Of a DNA stretch of 58,890 nt, positions 52,196 through 58,890 are shown piece by piece. The stretch lies in IMG/VR virus record IMGVR_UViG_2526164617_000008; one strand, 5' to 3'. This DNA comes from a virus (lineage: Duplodnaviria; Heunggongvirae; Uroviricota; Caudoviricetes). Below the pieces are notes generated by a model. The model had not been told where the DNA came from. It made no database searches and was given only the letters and a program-made list of their open reading frames with translations. The translations under genes and the position numbers were made by a program. Position 1 is the first letter of the stretch, and each line of letters opens with the position of its first letter.

Positions 52196-52257
52196 CGCTT
52201 GCAGTAACGGCGAAAGGGGCAATGACAGCGCTGCCATGTCGACAAGAACTGGAATAG
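52196..52257 (+). pseudogene. cscK: Detached 3' tail of cscK (last about 20 codons)
   Basis: Reads (A)LAVTAKGAMTALPCRQELE-stop, continuing the frame broken at 56533 on the other strand. Confidence 0.6.
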
Positions 52258-52328
52258 TGAGAAGTAAACGGCGAAGTCGCTCTTATCTCTAAATAGGACG
52301 TGAATTTTTTAACGACAGGTAGGTAATT

Positions 52329-53576
52329 ATGGCACTGAATATTCCATTCAGAAATGCGTACTATCGTTTTGCATCCAGTTACTCATTTCTCTTTTTTATT
52401 TCCTGGTCGCTGTGGTGGTCGTTATACGCTATTTGGCTGAAAGGACATCTAGGGTTGACAGGGACGGAATTAGGTACACTTTATTCGGTCAACCAGTTTA
52501 CCAGCATTCTATTTATGATGTTCTACGGCATCGTTCAGGATAAACTCGGTCTGAAGAAACCGCTCATCTGGTGTATGAGTTTCATCCTGGTCTTGACCGG
52601 ACCGTTTATGATTTACGTTTATGAACCGTTACTGCAAAGCAATTTTTCTGTAGGTCTAATTCTGGGAGCGCTCTTTTTTGGCCTGGGGTATCTGGCGGGA
52701 TGCGGTTTGCTTGACAGCTTCACCGAAAAAATGGCGCGAAATTTTCATTTCGAATATGGAACAGCGCGCGCCTGGGGATCTTTTGGCTATGCTATTGGCG
52801 CGTTCTTTGCCGGCATATTTTTTAGTATCAGTCCCCATATCAACTTCTGGTTGGTCTCGCTATTTGGCGCTGTATTTATGATGATCAACATGTGTTTTAA
52901 AGATAAGGATCACCAGTGCGTAGCGGCGGATGCGGGAGGGGTAAAAAAAGAGGATTTTATCGCAGTTTTCAAGGATCGAAACTTCTGGGTTTTCGTCATA
53001 TTTATTGTGGGGACGTGGTCTTTCTATAACATTTTTGATCAACAACTTTTTCCTGTCTTTTATGCAGGTTTATTCGAATCACACGATGTAGGAACGCGCC
53101 TGTATGGTTATCTCAACTCATTCCAGGTGGTACTCGAAGCGCTATGCATGGCGATTATTCCTTTCTTTGTGAATCGGGTAGGGCCAAAAAATGCATTACT
53201 TATCGGTGTTGTGATTATGGCGTTGCGTATCCTTTCCTGCGCGCTGTTCGTTAACCCCTGGATTATTTCATTAGTGAAGCTGTTACATGCCATTGAGGTT
53301 CCACTTTGTGTCATATCCGTCTTCAAATACAGCGTGGCAAATTTTGATAAGCGCCTGTCGTCGACGATCTTTCTGATTGGTTTTCAAATTGCCAGTTCGC
53401 TTGGGATTGTGCTGCTTTCAACGCCGACTGGGATACTCTTTGACCACACAGGCTACCAGACAGTTTTCTTCGCAATTTCGGGTATTGTCTGCCTAATGTT
53501 GCTATTTGGCATTTTCTTCCTGAGTAAAAAACGCGAGCAAATAGTTATGGAAACGCCTGTACCTTCAGCAATATAG
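52329..53576 (+). CDS. cscB: Sucrose:H+ symporter CscB (LacY-family permease)
   Basis: 415 aa, 12 TM, MALNIPFRNAYYRFASSYSFLFFISWSLWWSLYAIWL. Confidence 0.9.
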   Translation: MALNIPFRNAYYRFASSYSFLFFISWSLWWSLYAIWLKGHLGLTGTELGTLYSVNQFTSILFMMFYGIVQDKLGLKKPLIWCMSFILVLTGPFMIYVYEPLLQSNFSVGLILGALFFGLGYLAGCGLLDSFTEKMARNFHFEYGTARAWGSFGYAIGAFFAGIFFSISPHINFWLVSLFGAVFMMINMCFKDKDHQCVAADAGGVKKEDFIAVFKDRNFWVFVIFIVGTWSFYNIFDQQLFPVFYAGLFESHDVGTRLYGYLNSFQVVLEALCMAIIPFFVNRVGPKNALLIGVVIMALRILSCALFVNPWIISLVKLLHAIEVPLCVISVFKYSVANFDKRLSSTIFLIGFQIASSLGIVLLSTPTGILFDHTGYQTVFFAISGIVCLMLLFGIFFLSKKREQIVMETPVPSAI

Positions 53577-54016
53577 ACGTAAACTTTTCCGGTTGTTGTC
53601 GATATCTCCCTATCCCTCAACCGGAAAATAATAATACTAAAGTGCTTAGCCCGGCTAATAATCACCTAATCCAAACGCCTCATTCATGTTCTGGTACAGT
53701 CGCTCAAATGTACTTCAGATGCGCGGTTCGCTGATTTCCAGGACATTGTCGTCATTCAGCGACCTGTCCCGTGTATCACGGTCCTGCGAATTCATCAAGG
53801 AATGCATTGCGGAGTGAAGTATCGAGTCACGCCATATTTCGCTATCAGGATTCTGTGTGATGGTTACATCGCCCGGCCCAGGGCTGTTTAGTCATCAGCG
53901 CTTTCTGACAGTGCTGAGATTTCAACCTGTTGCAGTAAAAATGAGTAGATATAAGGCAAGTGTGCTGCCAAACCCATCTTTTACGGGGTGAAGGTAGATT
54001 TCGTTTGAAGGGTATC

Positions 54017-54031
54017 TGGTGTCCCCTGCAG
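54017..54031. repeat. Inverted copy of the argW 3' end (candidate prophage attR core)
   Basis: tggtgtcccctgcag is the reverse complement of ctgcaggggacacca at 11079-11093. Confidence 0.6.
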
Positions 54032-54104
54032 ACATCTACTTGAGGCGGCAGGGGATTGATTGGAATGCTGTTTTTTAGATTTGAAAAATATTTTACCCGC
54101 TATT

Positions 54105-54305
54105 TTACCCATTGGCGCGGCTTAAGAGCTTATTTTTGAATTCACAATGGTCACGATATAACCATCTTGCTCGTCCGTGGATAACTTTGGCTTTAGGCAG
54201 GTCGCCGGACTTAATCCGGTCATAGATGAAGGTCTTACCGAAGCCAGTATCAGCCATGATGAATTTCAAATCAACCAGTGAATCAGGTTGTAGTTCGTGT
54301 TGCAT
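54105..54305 (-). CDS. torI: AlpA/Xis-family excisionase-like regulator (TorI-like)
   Basis: 66 aa; MQHELQPDSLVDLKFIMADTGFGKTFIYDRIKSGDLPKAKVIHGRARWLY; recalled as matching TorI of the K-12 argW prophage. Confidence 0.7.
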   Translation of the reverse strand: MQHELQPDSLVDLKFIMADTGFGKTFIYDRIKSGDLPKAKVIHGRARWLYRDHCEFKNKLLSRANG

Positions 54306-54427
54306 GAGTGCTATCTCCGAATATGGAATCGAACCTGCAAATCAGGCAATAAAAAGCCGCATTGATGCAGCAATGGTAGGTCTGGATATCTTGAGAAATG
54401 AACAGGCCTCATCGAGTGTGAGGCGGG

Positions 54428-56532: not shown

Positions 56533-56823
56533 CTGCAAGCGCTCCGCAACGTTGAGCGAGATCGATAATTCGTCGCATTTCTCTCTCATCTGTAGATAAT
56601 CCCGTAGAGGACAGACCTGTGAGTAACCCGGCAACGAACGCATCTCCCGCCCCCGTGCTATCGACACAATTCACAGACATTCCAGCAAAATGGTGAACTT
56701 GTCCTCGATAACAGACCACCACCCCTTCTGCACCTTTAGTCACCAACAGCATGGCGATCTCATACTCTTTTGCCAGGGCGCATATATCCTGATCGTTCTG
56801 TGTTTTTCCACTGATAAGTCGCC
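56533..56823 (-). pseudogene. cscK: Fructokinase CscK, middle fragment (between IS911 and IS1)
   Basis: ...LISGKTQNDQDICALAKEYEIAMLLVTKGAEG...DSTGAGDAFVAGL...AQRCGALA, PfkB-family kinase signature. Confidence 0.8.
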
Positions 56824-56831
56824 TGAAGTGG

Positions 56832-57671
56832 TCAACAAAAACTGGCCACCGAGTTAGAGTTTTTCCAGTATCGATTTTCCGATTCGTTTGGGGGTAACCC
56901 ACCGTTATATTCGTGCGGTCTTAGTGCGCTGTAATATCCAACGATATAGTCCGTTATGGCGTGAGCTGCCTCGCTGAAGCTTACGTAACCCACCACCGGC
57001 ATCCATTCGTTCTTCAGACTCCTGAAGAAGCGTTCCATTGGGCTGTTATCCCAGCAGTTTCCGCGCCGGCTCATACTCTGTCTGATCTGGTATCGCCACA
57101 ATAACTGCCGGAACTGCCTGCTCGTATAATGACTGCCCTGATCGCTGTGGAACATCACCCCGCCGGGCTTACCACGGGTTTCCCATGCCATTTCCAGCGC
57201 TTTCATGGTGAGCCTGCTGTCCGGCGAGAACGACATGGCACAGCCCACTGGTTTTCTTGCGAACAGGTCGAGAACAACGGCGAGGTACGCCCAGCGCTTA
57301 CCCGTCCAGATATAGGTCACATCACCGCACCACACCTGATTTGGCTCGGTCACGGCGAACTGCCTTTCAAGGTAGTTAGGGATAGCAACATGTTCATGAC
57401 CACCACGTTTATACCGGTGAGTCGGCTGCTGACAGCTGACCAGCCCCAGCTCTTTCATGAGCCTGCCAGCAAGCCAGCGTCCCATCTGGTAGCCTCTCCG
57501 GGTTGCCATTGTGGCGATGCTTCTTGCTCCGGCCGAACCGTGGCTGATGCCATGTAGCTCAAGTACCTGACTGCGTAATACAGCCCGTCTGCCGTCTGGT
57601 TTTTCAGGACGGTTTTTCCAGTATCTGTAGCTGCTGCGATGAACCCCGAACACATGGCAGAGTGTGACCAC
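56832..57671 (-). CDS. IS911 OrfB (integrase-core frame)
   Basis: 279-aa frame with DDE motif. Confidence 0.85.
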
Positions 57672-57697
57672 AGGATAATGCGCTCTGAGTTTCCCGA

Positions 57698-58036
57698 TTA
57701 TCGAGAACTGTTCAGGGAGTCTGACATCAAGAGCGCGGTAGCCTTTTTTAATATTTCATTCTCCATTTCAATGCGTTGTAGCTTTTTCCTCAGCTTACGT
57801 ATTTCGATTTGTTCTGGTGTTATCGGAGAGGCTTTTGGTGTTTTGCCCTGACGCTCATCACGCAGTTGTTTGACCCATCTTGTCATTGTGGAAAGGCCAA
57901 CATCCATAGCTTTGGCGGCATCTGCCACCGTGTATTTCTGGTCAACAACCAGTTGAGCGGATTCGCGTTTAAACTCTGCGCTAAAATTTCTTTTTTTCAT
58001 TGGAGCACCTGTGTTGTTCTGAGGTGAGCATATCAC
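57698..58036 (-). CDS. IS911 OrfA
   Basis: [48 protein letters not shown] plus leucine zipper. Confidence 0.85.
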
Positions 58037-58072
58037 CTCTGTTCAGGTGGCCAAATTCAGTGTGCCACTTCA

Positions 58073-58642
58073 GCCATTCTTCTTCCGAGAGCTTGACGAC
58101 ATCCGCCAGTTGTAGCGCCTGCCGCAAACACAAGCGGAGCAAATGCTCGTCTTGCCATAGATCTTCACGAATATTAGGATCGAAGCTGACAAAACCTCCG
58201 GCATGCCGGATCGCCGTCATCGCAGTAAATGCGCTGGTACGCGAAGGCTCGGCAGACAACGCAATTGAACAGAGATGTAACCATTCGCCATGTCGCCAGC
58301 AGGGCAAGTCTGTCGTCTCTAAAAAAAGATCGGCACTGGGGCGGACCATAAACGTAAATGAACGTTCCCCTTGATCGTTCAGATCGACAAGCACCGTGGA
58401 TGTCCGGTGCCATTCATCTTGCTTCAGATACGTGATATCGACTCCCTCAGTTAGCAGCGTTCTTTGCATTAACGCCCCAAAAGGATCATCACCGACCCGA
58501 CCTATAAATCCACTTATTCCGCCTAATCTGGCGATTCCCACCGCAACGTTAGCTGGCGCGCCGCCAGGACAAGGCAGTAGGCGCCCGTCTGATTCTGGCA
58601 AGAGATCTACGACCGCATCCCCTAAAACCCATACTTTGGCTG
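58073..58642 (-). pseudogene. cscK: Fructokinase CscK, 5' fragment (start codon removed by IS4, 3' side cut by IS911)
   Basis: ...TAKVWVLGDAVVDLLPESDGRLLPCPGGAPANVAVGIARLGG...VVKLSEEEW then reads into IS911; no ATG before the IS4 end. Confidence 0.8.
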
Positions 58643-58890
58643 TAATGCCGATCAGTTAAGGATCAGTTGACCGATCCAGTGGCTGTGTAAGAATCCGGAA
58701 ACGCTCACTTGTTTCCGGATTTTTTTATGCACATTGGACAGGCTCTTGATCTGGTATCCCGTTACGATTCTCTGCGTAACCCACTGACTTCTCTGGGGGA
58801 TTACCTCGACCCCGAACTCATCTCTCGTTGCCTTGCCGAATCAGGTACTGTAACGCTACGCAAGCGCCGTCTTCCCCTCGAAATGATGGT
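58643..58890 (+). mobile_element. IS4, left end (partial, runs off window)
   Basis: taatgccgatcagttaaggatcagttgaccgatccagtgg terminal sequence recognised as IS4. Confidence 0.8.
58729..58890 (+). CDS. insG: IS4 transposase, N-terminal part (partial)
   Basis: MHIGQALDLVSRYDSLRNPLTSLGDYLDPELISRCLAESGTVTLRKRRLPLEMM. Confidence 0.8.

Follow-up and report, generated by a model that had tools for sequence, protein, structure and literature searches.

The DNA considered here (IMG/VR record IMGVR_UViG_2526164617_000008, 58,890 nt, hereafter the window) corresponds, by exact look-up of the CscB protein that it encodes, to the entire draft contig AKND01000037.1 of assembly GCA_000268005.1, Shigella sonnei; S. 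sonnei is also the only label attached to this exact protein. The right-hand end of the window holds the half of the S. sonnei csc locus that is nearer to argW. This locus specifies sucrose catabolism independent of the phosphotransferase system (non-PTS), and it is interrupted by several insertion sequences (IS). The cscB gene is an intact open reading frame (ORF), as a preliminary description made from the sequence had stated, and its 415-aa product, which differs from the Escherichia coli protein WP_001197016.1 by one substitution, A374T, belongs with the LacY-type sucrose:H+ symporters. In place of an intact cscK gene (encoding a fructokinase of the PfkB family) preceding cscB in one operon, the window possesses fragments only, partly inverted, with matches to Pfam PfkB. 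The coordinates of these and of the other features are collected in Table 1.

Table 1. Features of the window and their alignment to the intact csc locus of E. coli CEA224S (L001).
Feature	Position in window	Strand	Details
IS110-family fragment	5800-6411		
IS1	6897-7662		
argW	11019-11093		tRNA-Arg(CCT)
IS2 fragment	12709-13074		
IS1	13874-14641		
IS2	39788-41061		
IS1	43844-44611		
IS1_A, entire	49321-52195		Includes IS21
IS1_A, left part	49321-49551	+	IS1 positions 768-538 relative to IS1_B; insA; BLAST of IS1_B, inverted-repeat pair
IS21	49552-51654	+	istA, istB; inside IS1_A; 4-bp duplication ATAT
IS1_A, right part	51655-52195	+	IS1 positions 541-1; insB; right inverted repeat (IRR) end toward cscB
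cscK 3' fragment	52196-52257	+	62 nt; gene nt 854-915, codons 285-304 and stop; matches L001 9001-9062
cscB	52329-53576	+	Sucrose:H+ symporter; 415-aa intact ORF; Pfam LacY_symp
torI-like excisionase gene	54105-54305		In the inverted segment
orf114	54428-54772		In the inverted segment
orf200	55014-55616		In the inverted segment
IS1_B	55765-56532	-	768 bp; inverted relative to IS1_A; inverted-repeat pair, BLAST
cscK middle fragment	56533-56823	-	291 nt; gene nt 572-862; BLAST against L001
IS911	56824-58072	-	1,249 bp; orfA and orfB on - strand; 3-bp duplication GCC
cscK 5' fragment	58073-58642	-	570 nt; gene nt 5-574, codons 2-192; BLAST against L001
IS4	58643-58890	+	First 248 bp; contig end
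BLAST block, L001 8152-8721	58642-58073	-	
BLAST block, L001 8719-9009	56823-56533	-	
BLAST block, L001 9001-12569	52196-55764	+	

As a reference for an intact locus we used that of E. coli CEA224S, with the gene order dsdA-dsdX'-cscR-cscA followed by cscK-cscB-torI-hyp-hyp-lambdoid prophage. Alignment to an intact cscRAKB locus had been recommended in the preliminary description, and it resulted, by BLAST, in exactly three collinear blocks, with 98.8-99.5% nucleotide identity to this locus, one of these blocks revealing an inversion. The blocks overlap by 3 nt and by 9 nt, which correspond to the target duplications left by IS911 (GCC) and by IS1 (CGCTTGCAG), respectively. The cscK gene is found in four pieces, three in the window and one, of 16 nt, beyond IS4. 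The GCC duplication is present at 56821-56823 and 58073-58075, splitting cscK after W191 (...SEEEW) precisely as had been described, and the element between these copies is 99.8% identical to annotated IS911, possessing the length (~1,250 bp), the orfA/orfB pair, the imperfect terminal inverted repeats starting TGAAGTGG and the 3-bp duplication typical of it. IS1_B, likewise, displays the ~768-bp length, terminal inverted repeats, insA/insB and 9-bp duplication of IS1, and adjoins cscK at gene nt 862, while the cscK piece adjoining the left end of IS4 begins at gene nt 5, within codon 2. Both of these abutments had been recognized previously, but the losses that were read from them, of the 3' end and of the start codon, do not hold: the last 62 nt of the gene are located directly upstream of cscB, beside IS1_A, and translate to LAVTAKGAMTALPCRQELE followed by a stop, the C-terminus of CscK, and nt 1-16 are located beyond IS4 in closed genomes. 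With the IS elements removed and the inversion undone, the fragments join into a complete ORF of 304 codons, with only T44I and R202Q distinguishing it from the reference; thus the IS events are the sole lesions of cscK, and the earlier proposal of a stepwise decay through IS activity is upheld, later, lineage-specific steps being apparent as well. No match to the combined IS1/cscK/IS911 junctions was found at >=80% coverage among the complete E. coli genomes searched, and hence, as far as that set goes, E. coli does not share the IS1 and IS911 insertions. An exact-pattern scan for the cscK/IS911 junction in the GTDB species representatives, among which S. sonnei presumably has no separate representative, returned 0 matches, and look-up of the 48-aa chimeric cscK/IS911 ORF matched the window contig only.

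One feature overlooked in the preliminary description is a conflict of strands, cscB being encoded on the + strand and the right-hand cscK pieces on the - strand. The reference orientation places both genes on the - strand, with which these cscK pieces comply and cscB does not. Both flanks run collinear with the reference chromosome, and the 3,569-bp segment at 52196-55764, carrying the 3' end of cscK, cscB, the torI-like gene, orf114 and orf200, is alone flipped, between the oppositely oriented IS1_A and IS1_B, whose IRR ends both face inward, toward the segment. The two copies of the 9-bp duplication CGCTTGCAG, at 52196-52204 and 56533-56541, lie in opposite orientation because the segment that contains one of them was inverted. 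A further difference from E. coli CEA224S is the absence, beside IS1_A (on the side of window positions 47328-49320), of ~11 kb of the lambdoid-prophage early region, including exo, bet, gam, N, cI, cro, cII, O, P and part of nin. As to the route, homologous recombination between two inverted IS1 copies and duplicative inversion (intramolecular replicative transposition of IS1 into cscK in a single step) followed by an IS1-adjacent deletion may both be considered; as both predict the same end product, the sequence cannot separate them.

Since the source is a draft assembly with five IS1 copies in the window, and since repeats mislead assemblers, the opposite orientation of cscB and cscK could also be ascribed to mis-assembly across IS1, without any real inversion, and the 27 bp that IS21 lacks in comparison with the closed genomes might likewise have been lost in assembly. 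However, the same orientation is found in eight independently closed chromosomes of S. sonnei (L013-L020, among them CP000038.1, the chromosome of strain Ss046). These were reached via a look-up of orf200; the exact CscB look-up gave just short draft contigs along with the window contig, because the sublineage of the window (12 contigs) carries A374T, whereas the closed genomes encode a CscB with no difference from that of E. coli. For two of the eight, L016 and L019, collinearity with the window extends over 13,877 nt and reaches its last base; L019 departs from it by three single-nucleotide differences and one 27-bp indel, inside IS21. In independent sister draft contigs, too, the segment is bordered at each inner end by the same IS1 IRR ends, at which these contigs terminate, and the 3,350 indexed blocks with orf200, mostly from contigs of 2-5 kb, are as expected of an IS1-flanked 3.57-kb segment in draft assemblies. 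A mere assembly artefact is therefore very improbable.

The closed genomes also reveal what lies on the far side of IS4, as inspection of the sequence beyond it, suggested earlier, has now established. All eight share the order IS1::IS21 - cscB - torI - orf114 - orf200 - IS1 - cscK' - IS911 - cscK' - IS4 - cscA (GH32) - cscR (LacI-family) - dsdX' - dsdA - emrY. IS4 is present in them as a simple insertion of 1,426 bp (1,427-1,429 bp in two assemblies), at the junction identical to that in the window, with the 12-bp target duplication ATACTTTGGCTG, corresponding to cscK nt 5-16; this agrees with the typical IS4, an element of 1,426 bp with 18-bp terminal repeats and target duplications of 11-13 bp. 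It is followed by cscK nt 1-16 with the true ATG, the divergent csc promoter region, cscA and cscR. The cscA gene is an intact ORF directly behind IS4 in seven of the eight (477 aa, G121C), the gene in L015 (CP179952.1) having a premature stop at codon 368, and cscR (331 aa, P238S) is intact in all eight.

This bears directly on the claim in the preliminary description that cscA is absent, and on the reading that the locus has lost its invertase gene along with the 3' end of cscK, the sucrose-negative phenotype being due to gene loss. No cscA sequence is indeed found in the 58.9-kb window when it is compared by BLAST with the intact locus, and the cscK piece at 56533 does end at an IS1. However, the window is a complete contig, broken off by the assembly at 248 bp into IS4, and thus the absence of cscA cannot be read from it; the absence is an artefact of the contig end with regard to the locus, as cscA and cscR are positioned directly behind IS4 in the eight closed genomes, whose junctions are the same. 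The preliminary description had itself named an intact copy elsewhere in the genome as evidence against its claim, and in this lineage an intact cscA is indeed present. According to the text of Stephens et al. (2024; Front Microbiol 15:1409295, PMC11251922), >99% of S. sonnei genomes in RefSeq are positive for cscA. Given also the cscK 3' end at 52196-52257, the gene-loss reading is already refuted for the lineage, and for the strain of the window we consider it very improbable. If the invertase gene is present in this strain, the order expected on the adjoining contig is the right end of IS4, then ATACTTTGGCTGACAT…cscA.

The IS4 site deserves a separate comment. The same site, with the same orientation and the same 12-bp duplication, is found in 7 complete E. 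coli genomes as well as in the eight closed S. sonnei genomes (window 58631-58642; L008-L010, 7571-8996; L013-L020), the target context being AAAA-ccc-[ATACTTTGGCTG]-aca-TTTTTTT. The cscK::IS4 flanks differ from those of S. sonnei by 0, 6 and 20 mismatches per 570 nt and the IS4 copies by 11, 1 and 2 nt, and as the divergence of the flanks and that of IS4 do not track each other, a recurrent hotspot fits these comparisons better than one ancestral insertion. For the E. coli genomes in question (L008, L009, L010, 6660-7574) RefSeq lists cscK as a full-length protein of 304 aa, the disrupted gene appearing intact because the start is placed 4 nt inside the IS4 end (ATT ACA GCC…).

The insertions of IS4, IS911 and IS1, the inversion, the prophage deletion and the insertion of IS21 into IS1 are common to the window and all eight closed genomes and are therefore older than the common ancestor of these strains. 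Other changes are restricted in distribution. Six genomes (L013, L014, L015, L017, L018 and L020, including Ss046) have lost 163 bp immediately adjoining the IS911 end (window 58074-58235), and an extra IS3-family insertion separates orf114 from orf200 in L017 (CP109775.1; 8719-9875). Together with the cscA nonsense codon and with A374T, these changes point to a decay that is continuing within S. sonnei. The IS21 copy has the properties of its family (~2.1 kb, istA and istB, a short target duplication) and is 98.7-98.9% identical to the annotated 'IS21-like element IS21 family'. Compared with the copy in the closed genomes it lacks 27 bp (at window 50806, at the istA/istB junction), the products being of 389 and 253 aa, versus 390 and 265 aa, reflecting either a real deletion or an error of the draft assembly.

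Overall, we favor, with a probability of roughly 0.9, the reading in which this is an IS-inactivated S. sonnei csc locus, with cscB inverted off its promoter and with cscA and cscR retained beyond IS4. The cscKB operon was hit by IS4 (after gene nt 16, with a 12-bp duplication), by IS911 (after nt 574, with a 3-bp duplication) and by IS1 (after nt 862, with a 9-bp duplication); the 3.57-kb stretch distal to this IS1 was then flipped between it and a second, opposite IS1, with ~11 kb of the neighboring prophage lost and one of the IS1 copies hit by IS21. The cscK and cscB genes form one operon with a promoter in the cscA-cscK intergenic region, and growth on sucrose requires both cscB and cscA (PMC3938415). 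In the arrangement described here, cscB points the opposite way from this promoter and is cut off from it by IS4, IS911 and IS1, and so the permease would probably not be made, sucrose would not be taken up, and the strain would be sucrose-negative in spite of persisting genes for the invertase and the repressor. The sucrose-negative phenotype predicted previously agrees with 1% of S. sonnei being sucrose-positive in API20E, as given in the text of Stephens et al. (2024; PMC11251922), but invertase loss is not supported as its cause, and the separation of cscB from the cscKB promoter is likely the best explanation.

Several points weigh against this interpretation. The cscA gene is seen in closed genomes of the same lineage, from which its presence in this strain is predicted, and the substitutions relative to E. 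coli CEA224S, G121C in CscA, P238S in CscR and A374T in CscB, may affect the proteins. The outer flanks of the two IS1 copies, TACCACTTC at 49312-49320 and CTGTCTTTT at 55756-55764, do not form an inverted duplication, and therefore at least one further event, a deletion, must accompany the inversion. Upstream of cscB, istA, istB and insB of IS1_A are all located on the + strand, and read-through from IS21 or IS1_A toward cscB could provide for some expression; a consensus scan between IS1_A and cscB found no sigma70-like promoter, though weak or hybrid promoters may escape such a scan. Finally, for this strain both the phenotype and the silence of cscB are predictions from the sequence.

In classical descriptions S. 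sonnei ferments sucrose late, and the question arises whether the locus may represent a cryptic, recoverable system, with a low level of cscB expression, or with a cscB that another IS or a promoter mutation could activate, explaining the rare or late sucrose-positive S. sonnei. The ORFs of cscB, cscA and cscR are all intact, CscB of the closed genomes carries no substitution, and three IS genes read toward cscB. In addition, growth of E. coli W on sucrose reportedly does not depend on cscK (Sabri et al., 2013), in which case the three hits in cscK would matter mainly via polarity on cscB; a literature search on late sucrose fermentation by S. sonnei and on the dispensability of cscK gave nothing usable. 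The 1% of S. sonnei scored as sucrose-positive may be compared with <1% positive for scrA (Stephens et al., 2024, text; PMC11251922), but these rare isolates could equally carry scr. No promoter-like consensus is recognized upstream of cscB, and further decay is ongoing, as judged from A374T and from the cscA nonsense codon in L015, the deletion and the insertion in other strains. S. sonnei, moreover, is a very young clone, and so intact ORFs need no selection to persist. On balance, a recoverable system seems unlikely; if this reading were true, one promoter-creating event upstream of the inverted cscB, such as an IS insertion or read-through from IS21/IS1_A, could restore slow use of sucrose, and the locus might be likened to the cryptic bgl and cel operons of E. 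coli.

The chromosomal setting is that of the argW/dsdCXA island. Over its left 47 kb (yfdF-mlaA-yfdC-argW-intS-prophage late genes, Q, rusA) the window is collinear with the chromosome of E. coli CEA224S, and dsdX'-dsdA-emrY come next in the closed S. sonnei genomes. To the left of the IS1 at 6897-7662, window positions 1-6896 show no collinearity with the E. coli reference on its fadL side and carry a serine-recombinase-like ORF (390-962) and a 684-aa ORF without an NCBIfam match, and this IS1 looks like another IS1-bounded breakpoint. The prophage at argW is a remnant, itself hit by IS1 and IS2 insertions, and the IS load of the 58.9 kb is very high, with five copies of IS1, IS21, IS911, IS4, one IS2, both ORFs of which match over the full profile length, an IS2 fragment and an IS110-family fragment.

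The significance of this locus is slight, as it presents one more case of IS-driven decay of a metabolic gene in Shigella. It does offer two lessons: absence of a gene must not be inferred from a draft contig ending in an IS element, and an intact ORF, such as cscB, can be non-functional through rearrangement. The correct anatomy, including the inversion and the maintenance of cscA and cscR, would be useful for explaining the occasional sucrose-positive S. sonnei and for any use of the csc junctions as lineage markers, the 163-bp deletion and A374T being candidates.

When compared with known systems, the locus is closest in content and position to the csc regulon (cscRAKB) of E. coli EC3132/W, with the same genes at the same chromosomal site, the argW-dsdA hotspot, from which it differs in having cscK in four pieces, cscB inverted and detached, and the neighboring prophage partly deleted. 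Stephens et al. (2024) describe, in the text of their report, csc loci across all four Shigella species: cscA and cscR are often retained in intact form, and the usual fate of cscK and cscB is interruption by IS1, an IS3-family element or IS4 (PMC11251922). The window locus resembles these defective loci in its disruption by IS1, IS911 (IS3-family) and IS4 and in keeping cscA and cscR, and an IS-disrupted S. sonnei csc locus with cscA/cscR retained is, by that text, already known; the same text, its figure aside, makes no mention of the IS1-bounded inversion. The Ss046 chromosome (CP000038.1) has the same junctions as the window, whose strain, unlike genomes of the Ss046 type, keeps 163 bp of cscK next to IS911 and has the A374T version of CscB. 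The inversion itself is nothing unusual when set beside the classical IS1 inversions and adjacent deletions, with which it shares an inverted IS1 pair bounding the flipped segment, a 9-bp duplication split so that one copy is inside and one outside, in inverted orientation, and DNA lost next to one of the IS1 copies.

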